Positions 9,209 through 48,793 of a stretch of 64,000 nucleotides of DNA are shown here, piece after piece. The DNA comes from Candidatus Heimdallarchaeum aukensis. GTDB lineage: Archaea; Asgardarchaeota; Heimdallarchaeia; Heimdallarchaeales; Heimdallarchaeaceae. The notes below the pieces were generated by a model. It searched no databases, had not been told where the DNA came from, and worked only from the letters and a program-made list of their open reading frames with translations. The translations under genes and the position numbers were made by a program. Position 1 is the first letter of the stretch. Each line of letters begins with the position of its first letter. The stretch is from assembly GCA_021513695.1 (NCBI GenBank), contig CP084166.1, forward strand, positions 160,001-224,000, read 5' to 3'.

Positions 9209-10174
9209 CTATTCTCCCAAATTTTTTCTCCAGTTGTAATCTTCTTTTGCTATCAGTGTAACAGCAGAATCTTCTTTTGAATCGATGATTTTTAATTCTG
9301 TATTTTCTATAATCTTCTTTGAAAATTCTAGTATTTTTGGGTACCTTGGCATTATTTCATAAGGTAACCTTTTTCTTGCGTCTCCAACACTCATAAAACC
9401 TTTTACTTCTAGAAAATGAGCTTCTGATCTTAAAAATAATTCAGCAAAAGCTTCTGGTTCGACTAAATTGTAGTTTTCATCTACTAAAGTTAATCTTATA
9501 ACTTTTCTAGTGTTAAGCGAAGGAAGTAATTCAATTGTTTCCATCACTTTGTTCCATAGATTTGAAAAAGAAGGACGAGCAGTTTTTTTGAAACTTTCTT
9601 CAGTAGGGGCAATTAGAGTAACATAGAGTTGAGTAGGAAGAGGGTCAAGTTTCTTCAACATTTCAGGATTAGTGCCATTAGTTACTAGAAAAGTAGTCAT
9701 ATCACGATTGTGGAACTCTTGAATTAATTCTGGTAACAAAGGATAGAAAGTTGGTTCTCCACTTAAAGAAATTGCAGCATGTTTTGGATTGTAAGCTTCT
9801 TCATATAATCTTGGTTCTACTTTTGGATGATTTTTGAATCCTGCAATTAGTCTTCTTTGATGTTCTATCATTTGATCAATAATATATTCCGGTTTGTCAA
9901 CTTTTCCTCTCATTAATTCTTTGTTGTACCATGATGCACTTCTCCAGCAAAAAACACATTTTAGATTACACCATATTGTTGCAGGAGTACATTGAAGACA
10001 ACGGTGAGAAGCTATTCCGTAAAATTGTTGTTTATAGCAAAAACCTTCTCCTTTTAACGCGTGCTTTAACCAGGTGCAAATTTTTACTGCAGAGTGATTA
10101 CCAGCTATTCTGTACTGTTGTTTTTCTAGTTTGTCTTTCAATTTTGGAGGAATAATGTTTGTATTTAAACTCAT
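9209..10174 (-). CDS. taw1: archaeal tRNA 4-demethylwyosine synthase Taw1 (radical SAM, TYW1 homologue), full-length copy
   Basis: Radical-SAM CxxxCxxC 'CNLKCVFCWR'; upstream auxiliary Cys cluster 'ICTWLK...GFCYKQQFYGIASHRCLQCTP', characteristic of TYW1/Taw1; ~320 aa as in archaeal Taw1. Confidence 0.7.
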   Translation of the reverse strand: MSLNTNIIPPKLKDKLEKQQYRIAGNHSAVKICTWLKHALKGEGFCYKQQFYGIASHRCLQCTPATIWCNLKCVFCWRSASWYNKELMRGKVDKPEYIIDQMIEHQRRLIAGFKNHPKVEPRLYEEAYNPKHAAISLSGEPTFYPLLPELIQEFHNRDMTTFLVTNGTNPEMLKKLDPLPTQLYVTLIAPTEESFKKTARPSFSNLWNKVMETIELLPSLNTRKVIRLTLVDENYNLVEPEAFAELFLRSEAHFLEVKGFMSVGDARKRLPYEIMPRYPKILEFSKKIIENTELKIIDSKEDSAVTLIAKEDYNWRKNLGE

Positions 10175-10301
10175 TAGATTTACTTATTTTTCTTTATTTT
10201 TAGACTTTATCTTTATTGAAATTTTTTTTGATTAAATTTACTATAAAATTAACAAAGGAAAACAATAGATTAAAATATTTAAAAAATTAAAATATACTGA
10301 T

Positions 10302-11417
10302 ATGGTTAGTATTAAAAAAGTTCTCAAGCAACTAGAAGATTCTGATCCTATAGTTCGAAGAGATGCAATACTTACTCTTGGAGAACTAAAAGACGAAAAA
10401 GGGGTTGATCCTTTAATTAAGTGTGTTCAACAAGAAATAAAAGAAAATAGAATCACCGCTATTGTTGCACTTTCAGATATTGGAGATCATAGGGCTATTG
10501 AAATATTAATCTACTGTTTAATGGATGATGATGAAGAAATAAGACTTGCTGCTGCTCGAGCTTTAGGACGATTTACTTCTCCTCAAGCTATCACTACTTT
10601 ACTTGTTTCATTAAAAAAAGACCCAAGTGTGAGAGTTAAGAGTCGTGCAGCTCTATCTTTAGGGAGTATTGGTTCAGAACTGCCTGTTGAAGAATTACTT
10701 AAAGAATCTAAATTAGAACACCCAACCACTCTTCTTTATTCTATAAATTCTGCTTTGACAATGATAGCAAAGAAAAATGGTTATAGTTCAGTAGATGAAC
10801 TTGTTCAAAAAATAAGGGCTAAAAAGGCAGAAGTAGATGAGAAAACACCAGAGCATAAACAAATTCAGGAGAAAGAAGAGCTCGAATCTTTTCCTCGTTT
10901 ATATGACTACATTAGAAAATATGTAGCTCGAGAACTAGAAGGGGTACAAACAGTATTAAGTATTAACTCAGATGAAAAGACTGCATCAAAGAAAATAGCT
11001 GATATTTTAGCAGAAAAATTCTGGAAATTTGCTGAATGGATCGGAAAAAGAATGGGACATAAATTAACTGAATATCAATCTGATTTGCTCTGGCAGATGA
11101 TATGGGATACATCAAGGCCAATTAGAAATGAAATTTACCAAATGATAAGAGATCATCGCTCAGAATTAGAGGAATTAAATCGATTCCAGAAATGGCTCAA
11201 CAAAATAGAAGAACAAAAAGAAGAAGAAATCGTTAAAGATATTGAAAGAAGCAGACCTAAACCCATTATTCAAACTTCAAATAATGTGAAAAAAGACGAA
11301 GCAGAGACAATTAGAGCTGCAGATTTGGCAAGAAGTATTTCTTCAAATCTTGAAGAAATAATGGGCAAATATTCTAGTTGGAAAACAAGAGAGTTAAAAG
11401 ATGAAGAAGATTATTAA
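10302..11417 (+). CDS. HEAT (PBS-lyase type) repeat protein, copy 1
   Basis: Repeated 'D..VRR.A...LG' HEAT units in the N-terminal third ('DSDPIVRRDAILTLGEL', 'DEEIRLAAARALGRF', 'DPSVRVKSRAALSLGSIG'). Confidence 0.55.
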   Translation: MVSIKKVLKQLEDSDPIVRRDAILTLGELKDEKGVDPLIKCVQQEIKENRITAIVALSDIGDHRAIEILIYCLMDDDEEIRLAAARALGRFTSPQAITTLLVSLKKDPSVRVKSRAALSLGSIGSELPVEELLKESKLEHPTTLLYSINSALTMIAKKNGYSSVDELVQKIRAKKAEVDEKTPEHKQIQEKEELESFPRLYDYIRKYVARELEGVQTVLSINSDEKTASKKIADILAEKFWKFAEWIGKRMGHKLTEYQSDLLWQMIWDTSRPIRNEIYQMIRDHRSELEELNRFQKWLNKIEEQKEEEIVKDIERSRPKPIIQTSNNVKKDEAETIRAADLARSISSNLEEIMGKYSSWKTRELKDEEDY

Positions 11418-11569
11418 GCTTCTTTAAAATTCTGAAAATTGCCAAAAAAATTTTTCTAAAACAATTTTTTATTATTTATTAATTTTCGTAATACCTTGCT
11501 AATACTAAATCCTTCACGACAAAAACATATTTATTTCTGTTTACAATTGTGATATAGTAGATATCTAAG

Positions 11570-11779
11570 ATGGAATATGGGGTTAATATGAAAAAAAAGC
11601 TGATTACATTTAAAGTAACAGAAGCTATGATGAAATGGATAGCAGAAATGATGGAAAAGGGGAATTATAAAAATAGAACAGAATTAATTGTAGATGCTCT
11701 TAGAGAGTTTCTCATCCAAGAAAGAATGGTTGAAGATCAGGAAGAACTAGAAGCAATTTTTGAAAGAATTGATGAATAG
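11570..11779 (+). CDS. ribbon-helix-helix (CopG/Arc/MetJ-like) small DNA-binding protein, copy 1
   Basis: 69 aa; beta-strand 'KLITFKVTEAM' followed by two helices ending 'NRTELIVDALREFL', the typical RHH pattern. Confidence 0.5.
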   Translation: MEYGVNMKKKLITFKVTEAMMKWIAEMMEKGNYKNRTELIVDALREFLIQERMVEDQEELEAIFERIDE

Positions 11780-11821
11780 TTCTCTTATAACTCCTTCTGT
11801 ATTTCTGTTATTTTAGCCCTA

Positions 11822-12628
11822 TTATTCAAACCAATACATAGATGTTTTTTCGAAACATTCTTTTGTTAAATTTTGTGAAAGCTTAAAATAATTAGTAACT
11901 TTTTTATCTATCCTTTTTCTGAAAATCACTGCTTGATTAAAATCTCTATCTGATTTTATCCAGTTTTTTGTAATTTCTTTCATTGTTACCCAGATATCAG
12001 AGGAAGGAAAAGGGATTGGTATCTCTCTAAAAAGGTTTGAAGTTATGTCTCTTACAATAAAACTTTCTACTATAAATTGAACAAATGAGGAGGAAAGATA
12101 ACCAAACAACCCATAAAGGTCTATTTGTTCATCAGGAATTATGATGTCAAAAATGTCGTTTACGTAATAGCCTTCTAGGTCCAAACCAATAAAATACTTC
12201 TTTCCTCTATTTCTACGGACTATTTTTGGTTTTTCAAATATTTGATGATCTCCTGGTGCTCCTAATACTTTTCTGTCATAAATTATTTTTTCTTTTCCTG
12301 GAAAAACTTCAAAGTTTATGACACCTTCTTTGTAATTATTTGAAAAGATATTGTGTCTTACTATTTCTACAGATTTAATTTCATTTGAATATTTCTTTTT
12401 TTTAATATACTTCTCTTTGTATCTCTTTGTTATCGTTAATCCTCGTCTAATAAAAGAATGTTCTTTTAATTTAGGGTAATTATTCAGGATAGTGCTGATT
12501 TCCTTTTGACTTTCAGAACTAAAATTTGAAAAAAGAAAAAGAGGAGGGAAAATGAAGCTATAGTCTATTTTGTGTTCATGATTATCTTTTCTTTTATGAA
12601 ATTTAATGTAATTACTTTCGTTTTTTAA
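11822..12628 (-). pseudogene. 3' fragment (C-terminal ~269 codons) of the N6-adenine DNA methyltransferase gene, created by the tandem duplication
   Basis: Identical by eye to 15170-15976, the C-terminal part of the 663-aa MTase. It lacks the N-terminal catalytic motifs and any upstream start. The ORF track reports only the last 120 codons, from an internal TTG. Confidence 0.7.
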
Positions 12629-13524
12629 AAATCGATGATTTTTAATTCTGTATTTTCTATAATCTTCTTTGAAAATTCTAGTATTTTTGGGTACCTTGGC
12701 ATTATTTCATAAGGTAACCTTTTTCTTGCGTCTCCAACACTCATAAAACCTTTTACTTCTAGAAAATGAGCTTCTGATCTTAAAAATAATTCAGCAAAAG
12801 CTTCTGGTTCGACTAAATTGTAGTTTTCATCTACTAAAGTTAATCTTATAACTTTTCTAGTGTTAAGCGAAGGAAGTAATTCAATTGTTTCCATCACTTT
12901 GTTCCATAGATTTGAAAAAGAAGGACGAGCAGTTTTTTTGAAACTTTCTTCAGTAGGGGCAATTAGAGTAACATAGAGTTGAGTAGGAAGAGGGTCAAGT
13001 TTCTTCAACATTTCAGGATTAGTGCCATTAGTTACTAGAAAAGTAGTCATATCACGATTGTGGAACTCTTGAATTAATTCTGGTAACAAAGGATAGAAAG
13101 TTGGTTCTCCACTTAAAGAAATTGCAGCATGTTTTGGATTGTAAGCTTCTTCATATAATCTTGGTTCTACTTTTGGATGATTTTTGAATCCTGCAATTAG
13201 TCTTCTTTGATGTTCTATCATTTGATCAATAATATATTCCGGTTTGTCAACTTTTCCTCTCATTAATTCTTTGTTGTACCATGATGCACTTCTCCAGCAA
13301 AAAACACATTTTAGATTACACCATATTGTTGCAGGAGTACATTGAAGACAACGGTGAGAAGCTATTCCGTAAAATTGTTGTTTATAGCAAAAACCTTCTC
13401 CTTTTAACGCGTGCTTTAACCAGGTGCAAATTTTTACTGCAGAGTGATTACCAGCTATTCTGTACTGTTGTTTTTCTAGTTTGTCTTTCAATTTTGGAGG
13501 AATAATGTTTGTATTTAAACTCAT
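12625..13524 (-). CDS. taw1: Taw1 copy 2, 3'-truncated by the duplication junction (C-terminal ~24 aa replaced by 'F' then stop)
   Basis: Identical to 9283-10174 over its length. The protein ends '...LKIIDF' instead of '...LKIIDSKEDSAVTLIAKEDYNWRKNLGE'. Confidence 0.6.
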   Translation of the reverse strand: MSLNTNIIPPKLKDKLEKQQYRIAGNHSAVKICTWLKHALKGEGFCYKQQFYGIASHRCLQCTPATIWCNLKCVFCWRSASWYNKELMRGKVDKPEYIIDQMIEHQRRLIAGFKNHPKVEPRLYEEAYNPKHAAISLSGEPTFYPLLPELIQEFHNRDMTTFLVTNGTNPEMLKKLDPLPTQLYVTLIAPTEESFKKTARPSFSNLWNKVMETIELLPSLNTRKVIRLTLVDENYNLVEPEAFAELFLRSEAHFLEVKGFMSVGDARKRLPYEIMPRYPKILEFSKKIIENTELKIIDF

Positions 13525-13649
13525 TAGATTTACTTATTTTCTTTATTTTTAGACTTTATCTTTATTGAAATTTTTTTGATTAAATTTACTATAAAATTAA
13601 CAAAGGAAAACAATAGATTAAAATATTTAAAAAATTAAAATATACTGAT

Positions 13650-14765
13650 ATGGTTAGTATTAAAAAAGTTCTCAAGCAACTAGAAGATTCTGATCCTATA
13701 GTTCGAAGAGATGCAATACTTACTCTTGGAGAACTAAAAGACGAAAAAGGGGTTGATCCTTTAATTAAGTGTGTTCAACAAGAAATAAAAGAAAATAGAA
13801 TCACCGCTATTGTTGCACTTTCAGATATTGGAGATCATAGGGCTATTGAAATATTAATCTACTGTTTAATGGATGATGATGAAGAAATAAGACTTGCTGC
13901 TGCTCGAGCTTTAGGACGATTTACTTCTCCTCAAGCTATCACTACTTTACTTGTTTCATTAAAAAAAGACCCAAGTGTGAGAGTTAAGAGTCGTGCAGCT
14001 CTATCTTTAGGGAGTATTGGTTCAGAACTGCCTGTTGAAGAATTACTTAAAGAATCTAAATTAGAACACCCAACCACTCTTCTTTATTCTATAAATTCTG
14101 CTTTGACAATGATAGCAAAGAAAAATGGTTATAGTTCAGTAGATGAACTTGTTCAAAAAATAAGGGCTAAAAAGGCAGAAGTAGATGAGAAAACACCAGA
14201 GCATAAACAAATTCAGGAGAAAGAAGAGCTCGAATCTTTTCCTCGTTTATATGACTACATTAGAAAATATGTAGCTCGAGAACTAGAAGGGGTACAAACA
14301 GTATTAAGTATTAACTCAGATGAAAAGACTGCATCAAAGAAAATAGCTGATATTTTAGCAGAAAAATTCTGGAAATTTGCTGAATGGATCGGAAAAAGAA
14401 TGGGACATAAATTAACTGAATATCAATCTGATTTGCTCTGGCAGATGATATGGGATACATCAAGGCCAATTAGAAATGAAATTTACCAAATGATAAGAGA
14501 TCATCGCTCAGAATTAGAGGAATTAAATCGATTCCAGAAATGGCTCAACAAAATAGAAGAACAAAAAGAAGAAGAAATCGTTAAAGATATTGAAAGAAGC
14601 AGACCTAAACCCATTATTCAAACTTCAAATAATGTGAAAAAAGACGAAGCAGAGACAATTAGAGCTGCAGATTTGGCAAGAAGTATTTCTTCAAATCTTG
14701 AAGAAATAATGGGCAAATATTCTAGTTGGAAAACAAGAGAGTTAAAAGATGAAGAAGATTATTAA
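13650..14765 (+). CDS. HEAT repeat protein, copy 2 (identical to 10302-11417)
   Basis: The 371-aa translation is identical to copy 1. Confidence 0.55.
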   Translation: MVSIKKVLKQLEDSDPIVRRDAILTLGELKDEKGVDPLIKCVQQEIKENRITAIVALSDIGDHRAIEILIYCLMDDDEEIRLAAARALGRFTSPQAITTLLVSLKKDPSVRVKSRAALSLGSIGSELPVEELLKESKLEHPTTLLYSINSALTMIAKKNGYSSVDELVQKIRAKKAEVDEKTPEHKQIQEKEELESFPRLYDYIRKYVARELEGVQTVLSINSDEKTASKKIADILAEKFWKFAEWIGKRMGHKLTEYQSDLLWQMIWDTSRPIRNEIYQMIRDHRSELEELNRFQKWLNKIEEQKEEEIVKDIERSRPKPIIQTSNNVKKDEAETIRAADLARSISSNLEEIMGKYSSWKTRELKDEEDY

Positions 14766-14917
14766 GCTTCTTTAAAATTCTGAAAATTGCCAAAAAAATT
14801 TTTCTAAAACAATTTTTTATTATTTATTAATTTTCGTAATACCTTGCTAATACTAAATCCTTCACGACAAAAACATATTTATTTCTGTTTACAATTGTGA
14901 TATAGTAGATATCTAAG

Positions 14918-15127
14918 ATGGAATATGGGGTTAATATGAAAAAAAAGCTGATTACATTTAAAGTAACAGAAGCTATGATGAAATGGATAGCAGAAATGAT
15001 GGAAAAGGGGAATTATAAAAATAGAACAGAATTAATTGTAGATGCTCTTAGAGAGTTTCTCATCCAAGAAAGAATGGTTGAAGATCAGGAAGAACTAGAA
15101 GCAATTTTTGAAAGAATTGATGAATAG
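14918..15127 (+). CDS. RHH small DNA-binding protein, copy 2
   Basis: Identical to 11570-11779; convergent with, and 42 bp from, the 3' end of the MTase gene. Confidence 0.5.
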   Translation: MEYGVNMKKKLITFKVTEAMMKWIAEMMEKGNYKNRTELIVDALREFLIQERMVEDQEELEAIFERIDE

Positions 15128-15169
15128 TTCTCTTATAACTCCTTCTGTATTTCTGTTATTTTAGCCCTA

Positions 15170-17161
15170 TTATTCAAACCAATACATAGATGTTTTTTCG
15201 AAACATTCTTTTGTTAAATTTTGTGAAAGCTTAAAATAATTAGTAACTTTTTTATCTATCCTTTTTCTGAAAATCACTGCTTGATTAAAATCTCTATCTG
15301 ATTTTATCCAGTTTTTTGTAATTTCTTTCATTGTTACCCAGATATCAGAGGAAGGAAAAGGGATTGGTATCTCTCTAAAAAGGTTTGAAGTTATGTCTCT
15401 TACAATAAAACTTTCTACTATAAATTGAACAAATGAGGAGGAAAGATAACCAAACAACCCATAAAGGTCTATTTGTTCATCAGGAATTATGATGTCAAAA
15501 ATGTCGTTTACGTAATAGCCTTCTAGGTCCAAACCAATAAAATACTTCTTTCCTCTATTTCTACGGACTATTTTTGGTTTTTCAAATATTTGATGATCTC
15601 CTGGTGCTCCTAATACTTTTCTGTCATAAATTATTTTTTCTTTTCCTGGAAAAACTTCAAAGTTTATGACACCTTCTTTGTAATTATTTGAAAAGATATT
15701 GTGTCTTACTATTTCTACAGATTTAATTTCATTTGAATATTTCTTTTTTTTAATATACTTCTCTTTGTATCTCTTTGTTATCGTTAATCCTCGTCTAATA
15801 AAAGAATGTTCTTTTAATTTAGGGTAATTATTCAGGATAGTGCTGATTTCCTTTTGACTTTCAGAACTAAAATTTGAAAAAAGAAAAAGAGGAGGGAAAA
15901 TGAAGCTATAGTCTATTTTGTGTTCATGATTATCTTTTCTTTTATGAAATTTAATGTAATTACTTTCGTTTTTTAAATCCATTGATAACAAAAAGAATTC
16001 ATTGGAAACGTCTTTAAAGGAATAATCTAAATCTGTGTAAATTTCTACATCATATCTATTATCTTTGAGGTGTTTTCTCCATTTCTTGCCATAAGTATCA
16101 GTTATGATACCTGAAGGTAATATTAATCCTACTTTCTCTTTGGATAAACTTTCTGCAATGATCAAAAAAGGTAGAGCAAAATTATATTTTCCAAAGATTC
16201 TATTTTTATAAGGTTCTCTCTTTAAGAATTCTTTATATCTATTATTTATTTTTTTATATTCTATCCACGGTGGATTTCCAATAACAAAATCAAAAAATTT
16301 TTTCTGAAGACTTAAACTTTCATCAAAAAATATTTCAGGCAAATCAACAAAAAAGCTAAATTTGGATAGAGAAGGATATTTCTTCGATATTTCATCTCTT
16401 TTTGTTAAACATTCTTTTATATCTTGAAAAGAAATTTCTTTTTTACCAAATATCACTTCTCTTCTTTTTTCACGAAGTATCGCTAAAAGTTTCAAAAAAG
16501 TTGTATTTTTTCTTTCTGACATTTGCTTTATTATTCTTTCATCATAACCAAGAATGCTATCTCCGTATTTTGAGATTAAAGGAAGTAATTTTCTTTTTCT
16601 ATTATCTTGTAACATGAAAAAGAGTTTGAAAACTTGAAATTCATAAATAAATGGATCAACTTCAACTGAATATGGCATAATCTCTTGTTTTTCAAAAGCT
16701 GGGTAGAGAAAATCTCCTATTCCTGAAGAAATATCGATAACTGTTTTAGTTTTTTTAGAATTGTTACTCAAAATATCTAATAAATCATATACCTTTTTAA
16801 CAAGAATCCTATTAGTAAAATATTGACCTGTTAATCTCGTTTTATCTTGAATAAGTGATAAAATATTAACTTCATTTATTGTCTTGATTATATTTTTGAT
16901 TTGTTCAAAAACCCAAACTGGTAACTTTTTTTCTAGAACTCTGAGTTTTTCTAACGATAGAAGTATTTGCTTATCATCTTGATTTAGATTAACCAGATTT
17001 ATTAACGAAGTTTTTTGTTGATTTTGTTCAGATGAAAAGGATGAAGAATTGTAAATAAAGTAAAACTTTACTATCATCGATTTTAATTCATTAACTGAAA
17101 CTTTGTACCTACTAGCCTTTTTCTGAATTCTACTATGTAGATTTTCCTCTTTTATTTCCAT
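15170..17161 (-). CDS. gamma-class N6-adenine DNA methyltransferase with a large C-terminal target-recognition region (no nuclease domain seen)
   Basis: Motif X 'GQYFTNRILV'; motif I 'VIDISSGIGDFL'; motif IV 'FVIGNPPWIEY' (NPPW). The order X-I-IV indicates gamma class; ~360 aa follow motif IV. Confidence 0.75.
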   Translation of the reverse strand: MEIKEENLHSRIQKKASRYKVSVNELKSMIVKFYFIYNSSSFSSEQNQQKTSLINLVNLNQDDKQILLSLEKLRVLEKKLPVWVFEQIKNIIKTINEVNILSLIQDKTRLTGQYFTNRILVKKVYDLLDILSNNSKKTKTVIDISSGIGDFLYPAFEKQEIMPYSVEVDPFIYEFQVFKLFFMLQDNRKRKLLPLISKYGDSILGYDERIIKQMSERKNTTFLKLLAILREKRREVIFGKKEISFQDIKECLTKRDEISKKYPSLSKFSFFVDLPEIFFDESLSLQKKFFDFVIGNPPWIEYKKINNRYKEFLKREPYKNRIFGKYNFALPFLIIAESLSKEKVGLILPSGIITDTYGKKWRKHLKDNRYDVEIYTDLDYSFKDVSNEFFLLSMDLKNESNYIKFHKRKDNHEHKIDYSFIFPPLFLFSNFSSESQKEISTILNNYPKLKEHSFIRRGLTITKRYKEKYIKKKKYSNEIKSVEIVRHNIFSNNYKEGVINFEVFPGKEKIIYDRKVLGAPGDHQIFEKPKIVRRNRGKKYFIGLDLEGYYVNDIFDIIIPDEQIDLYGLFGYLSSSFVQFIVESFIVRDITSNLFREIPIPFPSSDIWVTMKEITKNWIKSDRDFNQAVIFRKRIDKKVTNYFKLSQNLTKECFEKTSMYWFE

Positions 17162-17243: not shown

Positions 17244-19307
17244 ATGTCTCATATATTGAAGCAAAATGTAAAGATACCCAAAGAAATACTCCCATTCTAT
17301 AAATTATTTAATGATTATGAGAAAGAACAATTTCAAAAATTGTCATCTTTAAACCAAATGTCTAATTTAAATGAAATAGGTACATTATTGTTAGATATCT
17401 TTAATAAAGAAATTGAACACACTTCATATTTTATGCTTGCTCTTGGCAGAATATTATATCATACTTCAGATATGTTAAATCTTGAAAATATCTATAAAGA
17501 AACCGATTCTGCTGAAATAGGGTTATGGTACGCTTTCTTGAGAATTATTAGTTCAGACGATGTACGAAAGGAAGAAATTCTATTAGATCAACTGAAAGAA
17601 AAACTAAATTATTCCTTATTGCACCTTCTTTGGACTATTGTTGAGCTTAATTTTTATGTATATTCAGGAAATCAATTTAATTTTAGAGAAACTAAAGATA
17701 TTATAATTAATCGTTTTTTAGTTGAAGATATCGAAAATAGAGAAAAACATAAAGTGATTTTCAAGCTTTTTTATTCATATATTTTAATTATAGAAATAAA
17801 TTTGAATTTTCTACAGAATCACATTTCATATGCTAAAGACCTACTTATCCATGCTTCTGATATTATAGTTACTTTAGAAGATAGGATTTTAGAGTCGATG
17901 CAACTTAGATTATCTGCATTAATTGAGTTAAGAAAAAACAACTTTTCAACAGCTCAACATCTATTTTTACGTTCTCTTGCTCTCGCAGATATGTTAAAAG
18001 AAATAAGATTTGCAATACAAGTTAATTCAGAAATTGGAGACCTATATCTACAGATGGGCCATGTTAAAGATGCAAAATTGTTTTACGATAAATCACTAGA
18101 GCTTTTAAAAAAGCATGTACCTTATGATTCTTCATTGCAAGGCATTCTACTTTCTAAGATTGCTGATTACTATTTTGTGAATGAAAAGTTTCAAAAGTCT
18201 CTAGATTTGCTTGATGAAGCTCTTTCATTCTTTAAAGTAGATAATAATTTTTCATTTCAGATCAAACTCAAATACATTGAATATCTTTTAAATTTGAAAA
18301 AAGTTAATAAAGCAGAATCTTTGTTGGTTTCAAGTTTTCAAAAGAAAGACAATTATCTTTATTTGCAGAATCAGAGTTTTTGCCTGTATTTAAGAGGATT
18401 TATTGAATTTCTTAAGAAGAATTTTGGTAAAGCCCAGTCTTTCCTCTATGAGGCAATAGGGATTGCAGATAGAACAGGAGATGAATGGACCAGTTCAAAA
18501 TCTTTAGTTCTTCTTTTAATTTTGCTTCTTCTAAAGTATAACTTAGCTTCAAAAGTAGACGATATAGTAGAAGCAGACAAGTGTGTAGATGATATAATTA
18601 CATTTTTAGAAGAAAAAGCGAAGTTTAAAGAACTTGCTCAGATATATCTAATTCGAGCTAAGATAAGAAAAATACTTCTCGACTTTGAGACTTCACTTTT
18701 TTTACTGAAAACAGGAGAAAATATAGCTAGACAGTATTATCCTGAACTTATTACTAAATATGAAGAAAATATTGATGAGATTTCTAGACTCTTAAATTTT
18801 GAAAACATTGCAGAGACAGAAACACCCTCCATAGATTTCAAGGAAGATATTGACACAATTTTTCAAATTCTTATCAGACAGACTAAAAAACTTGGTTCTC
18901 CAATAGAAAGTATTACAATAGCCGTACTTATTTTTCATTCAAGCGGTATACCAGTTCGGACTTATCGTTCTGAAGAGCTCTATATTAGTGATGATATGAT
19001 CTTTGGTGGTTTTGTGTCAGCAATAAGACATCTGCTTGATGAATTGTTCTATTCCCAAGAATCAAAGTCTTTAAGTGTTGATCATGGACAGTACAAGCTT
19101 CTAATTGAGTTTTACAAGAATTTATTTTCTATTGTTATTCTTACTGTTCGAGATAGCTTCTTGTTACGCAGAAAGATGCATCAATTAGTTAGTTTTGTAG
19201 CTTCAAAGGATCTGTTCAAAGAGAAATATTTTGGTAAAATTGATGAACTTGCTTTGAGAGACATTGATTCATTTGTTGAGAAGTTGTTTAAAGTCAAAAA
19301 GAATTAG
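17244..19307 (+). CDS. TPR-like helical repeat protein with a C-terminal Roadblock/LC7-like domain (paralogue A)
   Basis: N-terminal amphipathic helical repeats. The C-terminal ~130 aa share motifs with the next gene: 'SGIPVRTY', 'MIFGGFVSAIRHLLDELF', 'FSIVILTVRDSFLLRRKMHQLV'. Confidence 0.45.
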   Translation: MSHILKQNVKIPKEILPFYKLFNDYEKEQFQKLSSLNQMSNLNEIGTLLLDIFNKEIEHTSYFMLALGRILYHTSDMLNLENIYKETDSAEIGLWYAFLRIISSDDVRKEEILLDQLKEKLNYSLLHLLWTIVELNFYVYSGNQFNFRETKDIIINRFLVEDIENREKHKVIFKLFYSYILIIEINLNFLQNHISYAKDLLIHASDIIVTLEDRILESMQLRLSALIELRKNNFSTAQHLFLRSLALADMLKEIRFAIQVNSEIGDLYLQMGHVKDAKLFYDKSLELLKKHVPYDSSLQGILLSKIADYYFVNEKFQKSLDLLDEALSFFKVDNNFSFQIKLKYIEYLLNLKKVNKAESLLVSSFQKKDNYLYLQNQSFCLYLRGFIEFLKKNFGKAQSFLYEAIGIADRTGDEWTSSKSLVLLLILLLLKYNLASKVDDIVEADKCVDDIITFLEEKAKFKELAQIYLIRAKIRKILLDFETSLFLLKTGENIARQYYPELITKYEENIDEISRLLNFENIAETETPSIDFKEDIDTIFQILIRQTKKLGSPIESITIAVLIFHSSGIPVRTYRSEELYISDDMIFGGFVSAIRHLLDELFYSQESKSLSVDHGQYKLLIEFYKNLFSIVILTVRDSFLLRRKMHQLVSFVASKDLFKEKYFGKIDELALRDIDSFVEKLFKVKKN

Positions 19308-19389
19308 TTATTTATGCTCATAAAAAGTTTTTTCTTTTAGACGTAACAAGATAATATTTTTAAGAATAGTAAATATAATGTAAATAAGA

Positions 19390-21474
19390 ATGTCAGTAGT
19401 ATACAGTTTCCCTAGGGAATATAGTCATTATATCCCTCTTTTCACTAGAGAAGAACAAGATTTGATTAACAACTTTTCATCAAAAGTTAATAAAGATACT
19501 TCAATGGGAATCTTGAAAGATATCCTTTTAGATATTTTAGATAATCTTTCTTCCCCTTCTCTCTATTTCTTATACTCACTAGGTAAAGTTTTATTCATTT
19601 CTAGTAATTATAATCTACTTGAAGAACTCAATAAGAAATATAAAAGTGAGAGTTTAGAGCTGTGGTGGGGAAATGCTCTAATAAGGCGAACTGAGAATGA
19701 TAAAGTAATTAATCTCGCTTTGAAAATACTCAACAAGAATCCTGAAGAAAAAATAATTAGATTACATTGTTATGCCCTTTTAGCTAATGCATATGCAAAT
19801 ATGGAAAGTGAAAATCAATATAGACATTATATGCAAGAACTCTATCATGAGTCAATTATCTTTCATAGAGATTTAGATAAAGAAAAAATTGTAATAAATG
19901 ATATCCTTCTTTTTGCACATGCTATTGACATTTGGAAAGAGAGAATATCTGCACCTCTTTTAAAACTTGAAAACAAAATTGATGTAGCTTTTCAAATTGC
20001 AAAAGAACTAGGAGATCGTTATCACCTTGGAAGGTTGTACAACATAAGAGGAGTAATTTACAGATATGTAGGAAGAATCTCTGATTCATTTGAATTTATA
20101 AATAAGGCTATAAATTATTATAAAGCAGTTGGAGCTAGGAGAGGAGTAGCAGCAGCAAAAGCAAATCTTGCAACAATTTATACAATTAAAAATGAACTAG
20201 ATAAAGCCGAGAAATTACTAAAAGAGTCTCTCTCAATTTTTTTGGAAGTAGGTGATTACAAAAATCAATCCTTAATTCACTCTTCTTTAGGTGAAATTGC
20301 TATTGCTAAAGGAGATTATCACTCTGCTTTAGAATTGTATGAAGAATCTGTAAGTATATTGGAGCAAATAAACGCACACGAACTACAAGTTTATTGCTCT
20401 TTAGGCGAATTATATTATTTCTTAGGAAATAAAGAAAAAATGAAAATAATAATGAAATTCCTGCAAGAGACAGACAAAAAGAAAGAAGGATTCGTCTATG
20501 GATATTATAATTTGTTTAAAGCTCTTTTAGAAATTGATAACATGAATTATGGTAAAGCAAATGAATACTTGGAAAAAGCTTTGTCTATAAGTGATACAAG
20601 AGGAACAGGATTTTTCTCTGCAAAAATACTTCTTCAACTGTCATTGATCAACATAAAGCAATATGATTCTTTTCAAGAAAAGGAGTATTTAGAAAAAGCA
20701 AAACAGTACATAAATGATTTAGAACCATTTTATGAAGAGTTGAATAAAACAATTGAACATGTAATAATTCTATTGGTTCTTTCAAAAATATATGCAGTAA
20801 TGGAAGAATATACGAAGTCTTTTAACATTTTACAAAAAGCAAAAGATCGTCTTAATTTGTCAAAGAAAGAAAGAAAAAAGGATAAATATTACCACTTAAT
20901 AGAAAATAGAATTAAAGAACTTGAAGAAATCTTTTCAAAAGCCAAAACCGAAACATCATTCCAAAATGAAACTTTTCAATATGAAATTAAAGAAATGGAA
21001 AGTATAAGCATTAGACAAATATCAGAATATGAAAAAGAATTAAGAACTTCAATATTGGCACTTTTAATAGTACATCCTTCAGGAATACCTTTAATGAATT
21101 ATACGCTCAAGAGGTCTAGTCAATTTAGAGATGAACTAATGTTTGGAGGTTTTATTGTAGCTGTAAAAGACATGATAGAAGAGTTATTCTCTAATCCAAT
21201 GCAGAGTAAAGTAATGGTCATTAGCTATGGTAATAATAAGATAATAATGGAGCACAGTCCAAAGAGAAATTTTAGTGTAATTATTTTATCATCAAAGGAT
21301 AGTTTTATTCTACGAAGAAAAATTCATCGATTAACTCAAAATCTACAAGATATAGAGCTCCCGCAACAGTATATTGGAGAATTGACCCCTAAAACAGCTT
21401 CAAGAATAAATGAAGAAGTAAAAAATGTTTTTGGAGAAAACTTAATGCTATATGAAGGTGCTGTTCATATTTAG
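19390..21474 (+). CDS. TPR repeat protein with a C-terminal Roadblock/LC7-like domain (paralogue B)
   Basis: TPR-like units ('YHLGRLYNIRGVIY', 'AAAKANLATIYTIKNELDKAEKLLKESLSIF', 'SLIHSSLGEIAIAKGDYHSALELYEESV'). C-terminus: 'SGIPLMNY', 'LMFGGFIVAVKDMIEELF', 'FSVIILSSKDSFILRRKIHRLT'. Confidence 0.5.
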   Translation: MSVVYSFPREYSHYIPLFTREEQDLINNFSSKVNKDTSMGILKDILLDILDNLSSPSLYFLYSLGKVLFISSNYNLLEELNKKYKSESLELWWGNALIRRTENDKVINLALKILNKNPEEKIIRLHCYALLANAYANMESENQYRHYMQELYHESIIFHRDLDKEKIVINDILLFAHAIDIWKERISAPLLKLENKIDVAFQIAKELGDRYHLGRLYNIRGVIYRYVGRISDSFEFINKAINYYKAVGARRGVAAAKANLATIYTIKNELDKAEKLLKESLSIFLEVGDYKNQSLIHSSLGEIAIAKGDYHSALELYEESVSILEQINAHELQVYCSLGELYYFLGNKEKMKIIMKFLQETDKKKEGFVYGYYNLFKALLEIDNMNYGKANEYLEKALSISDTRGTGFFSAKILLQLSLINIKQYDSFQEKEYLEKAKQYINDLEPFYEELNKTIEHVIILLVLSKIYAVMEEYTKSFNILQKAKDRLNLSKKERKKDKYYHLIENRIKELEEIFSKAKTETSFQNETFQYEIKEMESISIRQISEYEKELRTSILALLIVHPSGIPLMNYTLKRSSQFRDELMFGGFIVAVKDMIEELFSNPMQSKVMVISYGNNKIIMEHSPKRNFSVIILSSKDSFILRRKIHRLTQNLQDIELPQQYIGELTPKTASRINEEVKNVFGENLMLYEGAVHI

Positions 21475-23625: not shown

Positions 23626-23809
23626 ATGACTTATTTTTTTACGTAAGTTTGTAAAAATTGAGGGAGAATTGAATGTAAAAAAAGAAAAAGGAAAGGAGGA
23701 AGGGAGTGGAAAGGAAAATGATGGCTTTTTATAGGGAAAAAAAGTATAAGTAAGTAAGAAGAGAAGAAGAAAACCAAAGAAAGAGAAAATAGAAGGAGAA
23801 AAGAAAGAG

Positions 23810-25255
23810 ATGGAGGCCGTCGTCAAAACCTTGAAAGTGAGAATAAAGAATGAGGTATTGACGACAAGGAAGAAGGAAAGGTTAAGGAGAATAACAGGAA
23901 GAGATACGAGAATAATAGAAAAGTATGTGAGAATAATACACCAAAATAGAAAAAAAATATGTATAAGAACTAAAAAAGGGAAAATAAGAGTACATAGAGG
24001 AAAATTAGACGATTTAACATTAACTACTTCAAGAGTAAAAGAAGAAGAGAGGAGAAAGACTTTTCCTCACGACCTTAAGAAAATGTTCCCCTATTGTTCT
24101 CACAATGAGTTTCAAGAGTGTAGAGATATAGCTGTACAACTATATAAACAATGGTATAGACCTAACACCACTCGTCCTCCAATAAAGAGAGCGAGAAGAC
24201 AACTAATTAATGGAAAGAGGTTCATCCTCATCCATCTACCAAAAGAAAAGAATAACACTCTCACTCGTTGGTGGGTAGGAATAAGAGACTCGTTAGACAC
24301 TTGGAAAAGAAATACCCCCTATCATCAGAAGTTGTGGTTACCTTTAGAGATGAGCGATTTCCACCAGAAAGAGTTAAAAAAAGGACAGATAAAAGGTCTA
24401 GAACTGCGATACAAACGTTCTACAAGTGAGTGGTGGGTATATTTTCAACTAAAAGTTCTTCCTCCTTCTTCTTTTCTAAGCGATAATTCCTCTTCTTCTC
24501 TTCCTCCAGCTGTGCTGGGAATAGATCTGGGGATAAACATTCCTGCTGCAGGAGTGTTACTAACCCCTAAAAAGAAGTTAACTATTAAACAGATAAAATT
24601 CTAGTATACCAAACAGTGGAATATAATCAATCATAGATATAAACTCAAACTTTCCCGTCTTCAGAGGAAAGCGGCTTTAAACGACCAGTCGGGTAAAAAA
24701 CACCAAGTTTATCGTTTTCTTGGTCTTCTTCGTCGGAGATATAGAAACGTTAAACTGGCGTATATCCACCAATTTGTAAACGATGTTGTGCGGACAATAG
24801 AGACTTATGCACAAGTGTATGACCTTTTCGTCGTCGTAGGTTATCCTAAACATATCCGTGAAGAGAAAGGAAAAGGGAAAGTTTCTCGTCAATTTCGCAG
24901 AAAACTTCATCAGTGGAACTATGCTCTTGTTCTTGGTCTTCTCCGTCGGGCATTAATATTAAGAGGTTTCGAATCTCACCGTATTCTCACTTTAGACGAA
25001 AGAGGAACATCCTCTCACTGTTCTCGTTGTGGAACGAAAGTCTCTCGCCCTGTCAGAGGGTTAATCTCTTGTTCTTCTTGTAATTACACTTTCCACTCTG
25101 ACCTCACAGGAGCAATGAATATCGCTCGAAGGTTCCTTGGTCATCTTTTCCGTCCTCGTGCAACAACTATTACTGACCACCTTACTGGCTATAAATTCAG
25201 TCTCACCCATTTCACTGTTTGCCAAGGGCTCAGCCATTGGTTGCAGTCCCAGTAG
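23810..25255 (+). pseudogene. tnpB: tnpB-like (OrfB) RNA-guided-nuclease-family gene; single reading frame interrupted only by one in-frame TAG at 24602-24604
   Basis: N-terminal 'KTLKVRIKNEVLTTRKKERLRRITG' (TnpB helix-turn-helix-like start); RuvC-I 'LGIDLGINIPAAGV'; 'LDERGTSSHCSRCG...CSSCNYTFHSDLTGAMNIARR' (Zn finger plus RuvC-III). Starts 23810 and 24788 differ by 978 = 3x326. I translated 24605-24787 and found it open in the same frame. Confidence 0.75.
24602..24604 (+). other. in-frame amber (TAG) codon inside the tnpB-like frame
   Basis: '...ata aaa ttc TAG tat acc aaa cag tgg...'; it is the only stop in 1446 nt. Confidence 0.8.
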
Positions 25256-25527
25256 ACAAAAAAAGAAACTAATTACTCTTATCTTTGAGGATAGTTATCT
25301 TTTTTTGTCTCTCGTGGAGCGAAGAAAAAGTTCCTTTCTTCTTTATGATTCCCACGATTCGTGTATGATGTCTGTCTCAACCCCTTCTTTCATTGTATGC
25401 TCTGGTTGAGTTCGCAAGAGATCAAACTCTCTTCTAGTTTTTTCTCTTGAAAGACTGAGTGCGAAAAACTTACGTAAAAAAGTAAATCATGAAAAAGAGT
25501 TAAAATCTTCTTTGTTTTTTTTTTGAT

Positions 25528-26583: not shown

Positions 26584-27663
26584 TTAGATTGGTCTGTTAT
26601 ATTTCCATCTTTCGATTGTTTCTTTCCAGTTTTCATAGATTTCTTTTTCAACTTCTGGTTCAATTTTGTAATTATCTGGTTTATATTCACGGAGAGTATC
26701 TAAATATGATTGAATATCGGGTTTAACCTTATTAAAATCTCCTAATTGGAGCTGAGAGTAGATTTTTTCTAGATTTTCTATAGGATTTTGACAAAATTCT
26801 TCATATTTAATTTCAATAATGTTTTCTTTGGGAATGGATTCAAGGTCATTGTAGAATTTCTTATACATCTCTTTATACATCTCGAAAATAAACTCTTTAA
26901 TTTCAAAATTAGGTTTTTGCAAATAGAATAGCTTTGTGTTTGTATTGTATAATTTTACTGTTGAAAAGAATACTTTGTAAGGGTCTCTATAAATGTGAAT
27001 GAATTTTGCGTTAGGATACAAATCAAGAATAAGTTTTACTCTAAACGTATCCAAAGGATTTTTGAGCAATAGTTGTTTTCCCTTTCCTCTAATTGTGAGT
27101 TTGTTAATTAAGTATCTGAAAGATTCTTTCCACTTTCTTAATTCTTTTTCAGTTGCATCATCAAAGGAGCAATATTTCAAATATTTTTCTTTATTTCTAG
27201 GGAAGAAAAGAGCTGTAAGGGGAGAAAGTAAGCAATAATTAGTTAACGCAAACTCGTGCTCTTGAGGAGTTTTTGCATTCATTTTCATATTATCCATTGG
27301 ACGTTTCTTTGGAATAAGAGGTGACATTATTGTTTTTGTAAACCAATAACTTGTAAGAAATTGATGAGGGAAGGTTGCTTCAACCATGTTAAGATAATAA
27401 TATCTCTTATCATGTAACATTAGTTCTTGTAGGTAAGTTGTTCCTCCTCTCCAATGTCCAATAATAAATATAGGGTCTTTCTCTAACTTAAGTTTCTTTA
27501 TTCTTTTATTCCATATTAATTGTTCAAATATTACAAAAGGAGAAAAAAGAATTGTTACCAATGTTATTGCAAATACCTTTGGCCAATATTTGATGTGAAT
27601 CCTGAATTTGTTTTCCCATAGTAGTTTTATCCATTTAATAAAACTTGCACCCATAAGAAACAT
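26584..27663 (-). CDS. sulfotransferase-family protein (PAPS-dependent), N-terminal TM anchor
   Basis: 5'-PSB-like loop 'FIIGHWRGGTTYLQELM' ((K/R)xGTTxL); size and layout of membrane-associated sulfotransferases. Confidence 0.55.
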   Translation of the reverse strand: MFLMGASFIKWIKLLWENKFRIHIKYWPKVFAITLVTILFSPFVIFEQLIWNKRIKKLKLEKDPIFIIGHWRGGTTYLQELMLHDKRYYYLNMVEATFPHQFLTSYWFTKTIMSPLIPKKRPMDNMKMNAKTPQEHEFALTNYCLLSPLTALFFPRNKEKYLKYCSFDDATEKELRKWKESFRYLINKLTIRGKGKQLLLKNPLDTFRVKLILDLYPNAKFIHIYRDPYKVFFSTVKLYNTNTKLFYLQKPNFEIKEFIFEMYKEMYKKFYNDLESIPKENIIEIKYEEFCQNPIENLEKIYSQLQLGDFNKVKPDIQSYLDTLREYKPDNYKIEPEVEKEIYENWKETIERWKYNRPI

Positions 27664-28763: not shown

Positions 28764-29552
28764 GTGATAAAGTTGAAAATGATAAATGAAGATATTTGTA
28801 TAAGCAAAGATGAGTTTTTGATTGTTCAGGAAAAAGACATCGAATTTAAGAACCCCATAGTTTTCCTTACATATCCTACTTCAGGGGTTATAGGACCTAT
28901 TATTTCAAATCAGATGATCTCTTCTTTAAAATTAAAAGAAATAGGTTTTTTCAAATCTAAGTTCCTCTCTCCAGTTGTTATCTTTACTGACAACGTACTT
29001 AAACATCCTTACCTAATTTATTCAAATCATGATGGGTCAATTGTGTTAATTTCGATTAATTATCCAGTTCCTCAGAGTTCTTACCTTGCTGTTGCCGAAG
29101 GATTGATTAATTGGGTTGATAGAGAACTAAATGCTAAATATATTGTATGTTTAGATGCTATTCCTGTTCAAGTACGACCCGAGAAAAAAATAGTTATTAC
29201 GGCTGCAGAAAAAGAAATTGCAGATGAAATGAAGAAATATGCAGTCGAATTATATGAAGATGGGGTTGTTTTGGGCTTATCAGGAGCAGTGATGAGTGAA
29301 GCATTACTAAGACAAATTGTAGGAATAGCTTTGCTAACTCCAGCTACAGTTAACTTTCCTGACCCAGAAGCAGCTCTACATTTAGTTGAGGTGATAAATG
29401 ACTTTTTTAAGCTAGGTATAGACATCCAACCTTTAATACAAGAATCTGAAAATATTAAGAAACAACTATCCTTAATGTCTCAAAAACAACAACAAATTGA
29501 AAAAGAAAAAATTCTTCCTCCCAGATCTTCTTTGAGAGAAAGCTTCGTCTAA
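28764..29552 (+). CDS. PAC2-family protein (proteasome-assembly-chaperone-2-like, archaeal PbaA/PbaB type)
   Basis: 'PIVFLTYPTSGVIGPIISNQMISSLKL...IGFFKSKFLSPVVIF' matches the conserved PAC2 N-terminal pattern. Confidence 0.45.
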   Translation: MIKLKMINEDICISKDEFLIVQEKDIEFKNPIVFLTYPTSGVIGPIISNQMISSLKLKEIGFFKSKFLSPVVIFTDNVLKHPYLIYSNHDGSIVLISINYPVPQSSYLAVAEGLINWVDRELNAKYIVCLDAIPVQVRPEKKIVITAAEKEIADEMKKYAVELYEDGVVLGLSGAVMSEALLRQIVGIALLTPATVNFPDPEAALHLVEVINDFFKLGIDIQPLIQESENIKKQLSLMSQKQQQIEKEKILPPRSSLRESFV

Positions 29553-33111: not shown

Positions 33112-33690
33112 TTATTTACTTGGTAAAAATGATTCAAGAGAATGGTTCTTTATATGTTGAATTATAGAATTCTTTGTATCAAAAGTTTCTTTACAAATTT
33201 TACATACGAAAATCTTCTTTTCTTGAATATAATCCCCAAAATTTATAACTATAAATTCTGATTTGAAACTTGATTCTTTTTCTAGATTATTCACAACATT
33301 ACTACAGATTTCATTTTTTGTATTTAATAGGTCAGGTGGGAAATCTAAAGTATCTTCATTTTCTTTAAGATAATCTTCGACTTTTTTTGAGAAATCTCTG
33401 GGAAAATACCATTTATTACCCTTTCTCTCAACAAATTTTTTTAGAAAGTAGTTTATTCTGTTATATAAATTAACCCATGAAGGATGCTGTGAAGCCCCCA
33501 GAAATGATTCAAATTGGCCATATGCTATATATCGAGCAATCGTAGATGTGTCTATTGCTACTGGTTGCCAATCTGCTTTATTCTCAAAATGCTTGAATGA
33601 TTCCACTGCGTCAACTATAGATTTTAGCAAATTTACCTTATCGATATCAAAATTCGCTTCTGTATGTGATGACCCTTTTTCACTAATCAT
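33112..33690 (-). CDS. C2H2 zinc-finger protein
   Basis: C-terminal 'FVCKICKETFDTKNSIIQHIKNH', a canonical Cx2Cx12Hx3H. Confidence 0.5.
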   Translation of the reverse strand: MISEKGSSHTEANFDIDKVNLLKSIVDAVESFKHFENKADWQPVAIDTSTIARYIAYGQFESFLGASQHPSWVNLYNRINYFLKKFVERKGNKWYFPRDFSKKVEDYLKENEDTLDFPPDLLNTKNEICSNVVNNLEKESSFKSEFIVINFGDYIQEKKIFVCKICKETFDTKNSIIQHIKNHSLESFLPSK

Positions 33691-47863: not shown

Positions 47864-48793
47864 ATGTTCACAACTTCAAGAGTTATGGTATTATCTCCCA
47901 CAACATTATTTTTGATTTCTATAATTGCTCTAGTCGTTGGTATTTTAAGTGTGATTGCAGGATTAGGTGGTGGGGTATTTATAGTTCCTATCTTAACTGT
48001 TTTATTTAAATATGAGATGCCTATTGTTGTTGGAACAACTTTAGCTTCAACTACATTTATTTCTCTAGTTGGGGTAATAGGTGCAAGAAAAAGAAAAGAA
48101 ATTGATTTTAAATTTGCTTTCGCATTTTTGATTCCTGCCACGATATCAACTTTTTTTGGAGCTCTAATTACAGATATGATTCCTGAAATTATTTTACTCT
48201 CAATATTGTTTTCTTTAGCTCTGTTATTAAGTATTAGGATGCTACTTGAGTCAAGAAAAAAGAAAAAACTTGGAATAAAGACTTATAGACGAGATAAAAT
48301 ACAAGAATTAAAAAAAGAAAAGAAAGAACAAGAAGAACATAGTCATAAAATAGCTTTTTTCGCAAGGTTTCATTATCCTTGGTTAAGACCTTTTATAACT
48401 ATCAAAAGAGATGAATACGAGTTCAAAATAAGTATACCAGTAATAATTGTATTTGGTTTATTAATTGGTTTTATCACTGGGCTTTTAGGATCATCTGGAG
48501 GATGGCTTATATCTCCGTTAATGATCTTAGGATTTGGTTATACTCCTATTGTAGCTTCTGGTACTTCTCTTTTTATCATTCTAATTAAAGCAATTGTAGG
48601 AGGTACAACTCATGTTATACAAGGTCATTTTGATATGATTCTGTTTTTTGTATTATCTGTATTTTTACCGATTGGGGGTTTTATTGGAGATTTAATAAAA
48701 AGACGTATGAAAAATAGAATAGTTGGTTTAATATTAGGATTTTGTCTGTTGGGTGTTTCTGCTGTAATACTTGTGTTCTATTTCATTCTTTAA
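47864..48793 (+). CDS. TSUP/TauE-SafE family (sulfite/organosulfonate exporter-type) membrane protein
   Basis: Two four-helix repeats separated by a K/E-rich loop; Gly-rich helices ('AGLGGGVFIVP', 'LGSSGGWLISP'). Confidence 0.55.
   Translation: MFTTSRVMVLSPTTLFLISIIALVVGILSVIAGLGGGVFIVPILTVLFKYEMPIVVGTTLASTTFISLVGVIGARKRKEIDFKFAFAFLIPATISTFFGALITDMIPEIILLSILFSLALLLSIRMLLESRKKKKLGIKTYRRDKIQELKKEKKEQEEHSHKIAFFARFHYPWLRPFITIKRDEYEFKISIPVIIVFGLLIGFITGLLGSSGGWLISPLMILGFGYTPIVASGTSLFIILIKAIVGGTTHVIQGHFDMILFFVLSVFLPIGGFIGDLIKRRMKNRIVGLILGFCLLGVSAVILVFYFIL

Follow-up and report, generated by a model that had tools for sequence, protein, structure and literature searches.

Paired TPR proteins with a C-terminal longin-type domain in Candidatus Heimdallarchaeum aukensis: candidate subunits of an archaeal small-GTPase platform

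Two adjacent genes of the Asgard archaeon Candidatus Heimdallarchaeum aukensis encode paralogous proteins in which a long tetratricopeptide repeat (TPR) solenoid is predicted to end in a longin-type domain. The genes, called A and B here, lie in a 64,000-nucleotide stretch of contig CP084166.1 (positions 160,001 to 224,000 of the forward strand, GenBank assembly GCA_021513695.1), which is referred to below as the window and supplies all coordinates unless another locus is named. A (17244-19307, plus strand) encodes 687 amino acids (aa) and B (19390-21474, plus strand) 694. We lean, with some reserve, toward the reading that A and B, joined in most related genomes by a third paralogue, C, are subunits of an archaeal TPR-longin family whose longin domains heterodimerize as a platform for a small GTPase.

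What kind of domain closes these proteins? AlphaFold2 (AF2) modeling shows a predicted longin/roadblock fold. The model of A residues 510-687, built on an alignment of 42 family domain sequences, has a predicted local distance difference test score (pLDDT) of 87.3 and a predicted template modeling score (pTM) of 0.71. Its elements are, in order, helix α0, strands 49-56 and 61-66, helix 75-92, strands 100-105, 108-115, and 119-125, and helices 130-145 and 159-173; the C-terminal domain of the full-length A model repeats this order. It is the element order of the longin topology (β-β-α-β-β-β-α-α, with two C-terminal helices), and superposition on solved longin domains is significant. A Foldseek search with the domain returned dynein LC7, Fuzzy, TRAPPC1/C4, AP-2 sigma, MglB, the Rag C-terminal domain, and LAMTOR, and the structural matches of the domain model also include delta-COP, Sec22b, VAMP7, sedlin, LAMTOR2/3, NPRL3, folliculin, and SRX. 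Nearly all of the top 50 Foldseek matches are of roadblock or longin kinds, the exceptions being two bacteriophytochrome chains with low template modeling (TM) scores. In A, the predicted domain (β1-β2-α1-β3-β4-β5-α2-α3) occupies residues 558-682 (18915-19289, plus strand) and is recognizable by an SGIP hairpin, a D-x-x-L/I-F-G-G-F-x-x-A helix, and an RDSF-x-x-RRK junction. The corresponding domain of B, residues 548-685 (21031-21444, plus strand), carries SGIPLMNY, LMFGGFIVAV, and KDSFILRRK at these places, matches the family hidden Markov model at an E value of 5.7e-43, and is the most conserved block of the B orthologues.

The original prediction, made from the DNA sequence, had proposed a Roadblock/LC7-like domain. 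This is borne out at the level of the superfamily by the AF2 model, Foldseek, and weak profile matches, and can now be refined. As modeled, the domain is longin-type within the roadblock/longin superfamily, because two helices follow β5, because more of its residues align with longins (112 to 120 residues of the A domain superposed, versus 94 to 102 for roadblocks), and because its relatives match PF19036 (Fuz_longin_1) and never PF03259 (Robl_LC7). The systems compared on the roadblock side were bacterial MglB, dynein LC7, LAMTOR2/3, and the solved Asgard roadblocks from MK-D1 and Thorarchaeota. The likeness to them lies in the modeled helix ahead of β1 in the A domain, whose place in the sequence order is that of a roadblock helix, and in LC7 being the best PDB profile match of that superfamily; the differences are the two longin-like helices after β5, the smaller number of superposed residues, the missing PF03259 match, and the fusion to a large TPR arm, where roadblocks are stand-alone proteins of ~100 to 130 aa. 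An unrelated fold without homologues elsewhere, which would have spoken against the original assignment, is not what emerged: a roadblock/longin fold is modeled, and homologues are numerous.

Sequence profiles point the same way, faintly. No Pfam family matches the C-terminal ~140 residues of A or B, even at E <= 1, so that neither protein reaches the PF19036 gathering score (26.1 bits). Among 41 family domains, PF19036 matches four (best E, 5.1e-08), PF19031 (Intu_longin_1) matches one, and PF03259 matches none, nor does it match A or B. Against the PDB, the A/B profile has a single match, dynein LC7a (E 0.52), and the wider family profile finds LC7b (E 0.009), BET5 (E 0.011), and MON1A (E 0.67). 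A further match of the family profile, to MtrR, is helical and evidently spurious, and so is the only match of the C-type domain profile, to ribosomal P0.

The hairpin motif of the family is S-G-[I/L/V]-P, with the glycine conserved in 94%. The arginine that lies two residues past the hairpin proline in A is replaced by methionine in the B of the window and by tyrosine in C. Conservation within the domain is strongest in the β1-β2 hairpin and helix α1, and the hairpin glycine and the D-x-x-L-F-G-G-F-x-x-A helix would be good candidates for the predicted platform interface. Could these be longins of the GTPase-activating protein (GAP) type? FLCN, NPRL2, SMCR8, and C9orf72 carry a Gly-Pro in the loop before β2, beside an arginine finger (PMC12290439). 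That assignment was rejected: Gly-Pro is absent from positions 1-45 in all 157 family domain segments.

The two genes are open reading frames (ORFs) of close to 690 codons in direct succession, as had been predicted, and the three motif pairs quoted for them are all present in both translations. Sequence comparison places the similarity of A and B far above chance and makes them anciently duplicated paralogues: BLASTP with compositional adjustment aligns A 282-682 with B 271-681 at E 1e-32 (26% identity over 422 columns). The original prediction had confined the homology to the C-terminal ~130 aa. That part stands, but the paralogy is wider, extending into the repeats for ~270 aa ahead of the C-terminal domain, or ~400 aa and the C-terminal two thirds in all. 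The N termini had been called divergent, and the first ~280 aa have indeed diverged too far for BLAST, but a short N-terminal motif is still common to the family. The TPR-like character of the N-terminal region is upheld by Pfam TPR_12, which exceeds its cutoff of 30.1 bits in both proteins (A, 34.0; B, 65.1), and in B residues 215-355 match TPR_2, TPR_10, and TPR_8 as well. Pfam TPR models above the gathering score, taken with the helix-pair solenoid, place both proteins among the tetratricopeptide repeat proteins; NCBIfam gave TPR-type partial matches only. A and B are separated by an 82-bp spacer (19308-19389, plus strand) with an oligo-T run just 3' of the A stop codon and AT-rich, TATA-like stretches 5' of the B start. 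These motifs carry little weight, because the genome has a G+C content of 30%.

The full-length AF2 model of A, built on 43 aligned sequences, has a pLDDT of 87.9 and a pTM of 0.87. Residues 1-518 (17244-18797, plus strand) are modeled as a TPR-like alpha-solenoid of ~26 helices spanning residues 16-518. It is followed by a linker helix before β1 (residues 533-545; 18840-18878, plus strand) that occupies the same place in sequence order as the roadblock N-terminal helix. The solenoid of B, residues ~1-525 (19390-20964, plus strand), is assigned from the Pfam TPR models and is colinear with that of A. Because the pTM is high, the model suggests that arm and longin domain of A stand in a fixed relation. 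A structure search found the peptide-binding TPRs of LGN, Rap, NprR, and AimR to be the closest structures to the A solenoid, with PlcR, MalT, and subunits of the anaphase-promoting complex (APC/C) also present. The best solved chain aligns at most 411 of the 687 residues, and none spans both halves; among the known superhelices compared (LGN/Pins, Rap/NprR/PlcR/AimR, MalT domain III, and the APC/C TPR subunits), none carries a longin domain.

The alignment consensus has a short motif at the N terminus of the whole family, P-x-E ... P-L/F-L/F ... E. It was noted at 17271-17312 (A residues ~10-23) and in the equivalent region of B. In the model, residues ~9-23 of A form a conserved segment without regular helix, mostly nonhelical, at a pLDDT above 90. 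This segment probably packs onto the solenoid and may, judging from the model, occupy the TPR groove as an intramolecular pseudo-ligand. Such a pseudo-ligand would suit a different reading, in which the superhelix senses a peptide or protein signal, as in RRNPP or LGN-like proteins, and the longin is a ligand-binding or output module of prokaryotic signaling. The structural neighbors of the solenoid (LGN, Rap, NprR, AimR, PlcR, and MalT) fit this, as does the analogy with Asgard NPRL2-like longins, since Asgard longin fusions with two-component signaling domains have been described by Liu et al. (10.1101/2020.10.19.343400). We regard a signal sensor as unlikely, however. No kinase, receiver, DNA-binding, or other output domain was found in A, B, or the conserved neighbors, and the Foldseek matches of the GAF type (phytochromes) appear at low TM-score only.

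How widely is the gene pair conserved? A scan of related loci, taking one genome per species and ±8 kb of each, recovered 26 loci, all from Heimdallarchaeota or from unclassified Asgard or archaeal metagenome-assembled genomes (MAGs). The locus DNA is 85 to 88% identical to that of Candidatus Heimdallarchaeum endolithica PR6 (CP084167.1, a complete genome). Orthologues of A (678 to 699 aa) are present in 22 loci and those of B (694 to 738 aa) in 21, with B directly 3' of A in 20 loci and in the window. The third paralogue, C (670 to 681 aa), follows B on the same strand in 16 of the 21 related loci where the sequence runs on, again with short spacers. In two loci, L026 and L027, B and C are adjacent without A. 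Two MAGs are split, with A on one contig, where another gene follows it, and B-C on a second (L009/L026 and L014/L027). The A-B(-C) tandem order is thus conserved. C is related to B by BLASTP (E 9e-9, colinear over ~500 aa) and to the A/B domain profile by hhalign (92.9%, E 3.7e-7); the C of L001 passes PF19036 (29.9 versus 26.1 bits), and that of L003 falls just under it (24.1 bits). No further copy of the domain and no remnant of C was found in a search of the window. In the orthologue sets of A, B, and C alike, conservation peaks in the longin block. Its identity is 0.65 to 0.67 in A (solenoid, about 0.3), 0.54 in B (solenoid, about 0.35), and 0.71 to 0.79 in C (solenoid, about 0.5).

The array sits in a wider conserved gene order. 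It begins with a TYW1-like radical S-adenosylmethionine (SAM) gene, a gene for a 371-aa HEAT-repeat protein, a gene for a 171- to 189-aa protein, and a methyltransferase gene on the minus strand. Next come A, B, and C on the plus strand with short spacers, a gene for a ~626-aa protein with an HExxHxxGxxH motif, a signal sequence, and a C-terminal anchor, and an MFS/PhoU-like transporter gene.

Beyond this locus, the domain belongs to a sizeable family, which was visible only to exhaustive HMMER searches and not to word-indexed ones. The exhaustive search with the A/B domain profile gave 214 clusters (50% identity) at E <= 1e-3, 11 of them at E <= 1e-30. With word indexing, the A domain found five Heimdallarchaeota fragments, the family alignment had 12 matches, and the B domain retrieved no homologue. 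Among the best 150 of the 214 clusters, 64 are proteins of 560 to 800 aa with the domain at the C terminus, 42 are short proteins of less than 230 aa, and several are proteins of 1100 to 2200 aa with two or three copies of the domain. Since TPR_12 is present in 38 of the 43 full-length members tested, the TPR-longin combination is, going by these profile matches, the main architecture of the family. Source names, which exist for a minority of members, include Heimdallarchaeota/Heimdallarchaeaceae, Hodarchaeales, Lokiarchaeota, Promethearchaeota, Ca. Harpocratesius, Methanomassiliicoccales, and Proteinoplasmatales. The giants P0022 (2171 aa), P0023 (1320 aa), P0031, and P0062 (1581 aa), with two or three longin-type domains ~500 residues apart, look like concatenated TPR-longin units. 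Because the named ones come from Thermoplasmatota (Methanomassiliicoccales and Proteinoplasmatales), the domain family, which is spread across Asgard archaea, also extends beyond them. NCBI and IMG call the members "tetratricopeptide repeat protein" or "hypothetical," and the longin domain is unannotated.

How might A, B, and C work? In the platform reading that we lean toward, each subunit would consist of a ~520-residue TPR superhelix, serving as a protein- or peptide-binding arm, joined rigidly to one C-terminal longin-type domain. The longin domains of A and B, and of C where present, would pair via helix α1 and the sheet edge. The paired longins would bind and regulate, or anchor, a Ras-superfamily small GTPase encoded elsewhere in the genome, regulation taking the form of guanine nucleotide exchange factor (GEF) or GAP activity, and the TPR arms would recruit an upstream signal or downstream partners. 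We infer hetero-oligomerization, GTPase binding, and the direction of regulation by analogy. The conserved side-by-side order of the paralogous genes and the preferential conservation of the longin block speak for a complex. All well-studied longin and roadblock modules are known to pair (Mon1-Ccz1, TRAPPC1-C4, LAMTOR2-3, AP sigma-mu, and the MglB dimer), and longin/roadblock dimers are GTPase platforms from bacteria to eukaryotes. Pairing and platform function in the superfamily follow Levine (2013), as cited in PMC10933270, and the solved Mon1-Ccz1, TRAPP, Ragulator, and MglB structures.

Several points weigh against the platform. The PDB sequence matches of the domain are marginal, the Pfam longin and roadblock models do not pick up A or B even at E <= 1, and the structures are predictions from alignments of 42 to 43 sequences. 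No C stands beside B in the window, nor in H. endolithica or three other loci, so that a complex would have no set stoichiometry. Some longin and roadblock domains also work independently of GTPases, as in dynein LC7, SNARE longins, and AP sigma subunits. Moreover, a Pfam search of all ORFs of at least 150 aa found no small GTPase in the window, and there is none among the conserved neighbors; with no GTPase gene nearby, the link to a GTPase is one of analogy. This missing linked GTPase speaks neither for nor against the platform, because Asgard small GTPases are generally not encoded beside their roadblock or longin genes (PMC10933270).

These points can be turned into a reading of their own, in which A, B, and C form a scaffold or adaptor without a GTPase. 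The longins would only dimerize or dock, tying two or three TPR arms into a multivalent hub, as LC7 does in dynein, sigma and mu longins in adaptor complexes, and the longins of SNAREs. The empty neighborhood and the resemblance of the arms to generic protein- or peptide-binding solenoids agree with such a hub, which we consider a real though clearly less probable alternative. Conservation, however, is strongest in the hairpin and helix α1, the surface that faces the dimer partner or the GTPase in known platforms, and PF19036 (MON1/FUZ/HPS1 LD1), a GEF module, is the family nearest in sequence. An unlinked GTPase, again, is the norm in Asgard genomes (PMC10933270).

How do the TPR-longins compare with better-known longin proteins? 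The family closest in sequence is that of Mon1-Ccz1, BLOC-3 (HPS1-HPS4), and CPLANE (Fuzzy-Inturned), represented by PF19036 and PF19031. In these eukaryotic tri-longin RabGEFs, the first longin domains heterodimerize into the GTPase site. The archaeal proteins are likewise paralogous subunits, here encoded side by side. They differ in having one longin after a ~520-aa TPR solenoid instead of three longins and in lying, in the case of A and B, below the Pfam thresholds; a GEF role is putative and drawn by analogy. That A-B(-C) is an archaea-specific heteromeric longin-platform regulator, a single-longin, TPR-armed counterpart and possibly a relative of Mon1-Ccz1, BLOC-3, and CPLANE, is a tentative suggestion that we hold to be doubtful. 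A more speculative version, likewise by analogy, would see in the fused solenoid and longin module an echo of half an adaptor/COPI-F core, in which a solenoid cradles a sigma/mu-type longin.

Asgard longins described so far comprise the Lokiarchaeota Roadblock-Longin protein (PDB 8yqg), GP-motif longins of the FLCN/SMCR8 type, and longin-GTPase and longin-TRAPPC3 fusions. The TPR-longins belong to the same superfamily expansion and domain shuffling; they differ in having the G-[I/L/V]-P hairpin rather than GP and no DENN domain. Large lineage-specific expansions and domain shuffling are documented for the Asgard roadblock/longin superfamily (10.1101/2020.10.19.343400; see also PMC10933270 and PMC12290439), and Liu et al. 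counted 130 Asgard clusters of orthologous genes (asCOGs), most of whose multidomain architectures are absent from eukaryotes (10.1101/2020.10.19.343400). In full-text searches of the literature, with the asCOG supplementary tables not covered, no description of a TPR-longin fusion or of an A-B-C array was found. The family is neither PF03259, nor a tri-longin GEF, nor a GP-motif GAP longin. New here are the undescribed TPR-longin architecture and the conserved paralogue array; the Asgard longin-domain expansion itself was already known.

The gene next to A raises one more possibility. As originally predicted, A is transcribed divergently from a methyltransferase gene (15170-17161, minus strand), with an 82-bp spacer between them. 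Pfam identifies the 663-aa product as an Eco57I-type N6-adenine methyltransferase with a TaqI_C domain, and PADLOC gives the generic MTase_II match only. Could the locus be a restriction-modification or antivirus defense system? Both the window and 18 related loci have the methyltransferase gene immediately beside A and divergent from it, TPR proteins do occur in some defense systems, and PADLOC reports a weak generic TPR match (E 2e-4 to 4.5e-4). Yet PADLOC offers generic matches only, with no nuclease or defense-specific model. The whole neighborhood order is conserved, housekeeping genes included, which points to inherited synteny and not to a mobile island; L025, a distant locus, has A-B without the methyltransferase; and the G+C content of the locus is not anomalous against the ~30% of the window. 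A defense locus is very improbable, and A and B as defense-system proteins are rejected on the generic-only PADLOC matches together with the conserved housekeeping synteny. Adjacency to the methyltransferase is best read as inherited synteny, because the flanking genes are functionally unrelated and L025 does without it. The methyltransferase itself has no nuclease partner nearby and keeps the same position in 18 Heimdallarchaeota loci, which is unusual for a restriction-modification gene and suggests an orphan or housekeeping enzyme.

Two of the conserved neighbors are absent from the window. The 171- to 189-aa protein is encoded between the HEAT-repeat and methyltransferase genes (L003 3772-4284, minus strand, with orthologues in 11 other loci). 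It has an invariant "...FSIFDEExGP(L/I)(I/L)LY..." that by eye resembles a β1-GP-β2 longin hairpin. Sequence comparison did not support it as a small GP-motif longin: it has no Pfam match, no meaningful PDB profile match, and an hhalign probability of 0.1% against the family. The ~626-aa protein, convergent with C (L003 12707-14611, minus strand, with orthologues in 15 other loci), has an N-terminal signal or transmembrane segment, a C-terminal transmembrane anchor, and a HELGHSLGFPHPH (metzincin-like) motif, and it matches no Pfam family.

Upstream of the array, 9280-12629 and 12630-15977 form a tandem direct duplication of 3,350 bp (99.94% identity). The repeated unit takes in the TYW1-like radical-SAM gene, the gene for the 371-aa HEAT-repeat protein, and ~800 bp from the 3' end of the methyltransferase gene, which is represented in the first copy by a truncated fragment (ORF 11822-12184). 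Ca. H. endolithica PR6 has this region only once, and the duplication is either very recent or an assembly artifact. Downstream, an insertion of ~1.9 kb (23627-25489) interrupts sequence that is continuous in H. endolithica; its G+C content is 0.37, versus ~0.30. Its ORFs (23810-24604 and 24788-25255) look by eye like a split IS200/605-type TnpB, with a zinc-ribbon CxxC...CxxC in the second.

Elsewhere in the window, 38409-41393 (minus strand) encodes a 994-aa ResIII/DEAD helicase with an N-terminal RING-finger match, a eukaryote-like combination; the zf-RING_2 match scores 27.2 bits, against a cutoff of 27.3, over residues 28-71. Two further genes belong to eukaryote-flavored families: a 192-aa C2H2 zinc-finger protein (33112-33690, minus strand) and a PAC2-family (proteasome assembly chaperone) protein (28764-29552, plus strand). 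A fused ATP-sulfurylase/APS (adenosine 5'-phosphosulfate)-kinase (43202-44944, plus strand), a sulfotransferase (26584-27663, minus strand), and a TauE-type exporter (47864-48793, plus strand) hint at sulfation dependent on 3'-phosphoadenosine 5'-phosphosulfate.

TRAPP, Mon1-Ccz1, Ragulator, GATOR1, folliculin, and adaptor complexes are built around longin/roadblock dimers, which serve small GTPases as universal docking sites, and the expansion of these domains in Asgard archaea ranks among the main arguments for tracing the regulation of eukaryotic membrane traffic back to archaea. The partners of Asgard longins are hard to guess, since their genes seldom have informative neighbors (PMC10933270). 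The A-B(-C) locus supplies a ready hypothesis on the members of a complex, each subunit having a large partner-binding arm, for a family whose longin domain escapes current annotation. If the platform reading is true, the locus would offer a defined, clonable archaeal heteromeric longin module for tests of GTPase regulation. If the array is an archaeal counterpart of the RabGEFs, or the adaptor-like module of the more speculative version, it would be a tractable, operon-like archaeal model for the pre-eukaryotic control of small GTPases by longin heterodimers. Should the platform reading prove false, the TPR-longins would still be a sizeable, unannotated class of longins, overlooked by any census that goes by Pfam or NCBI names.

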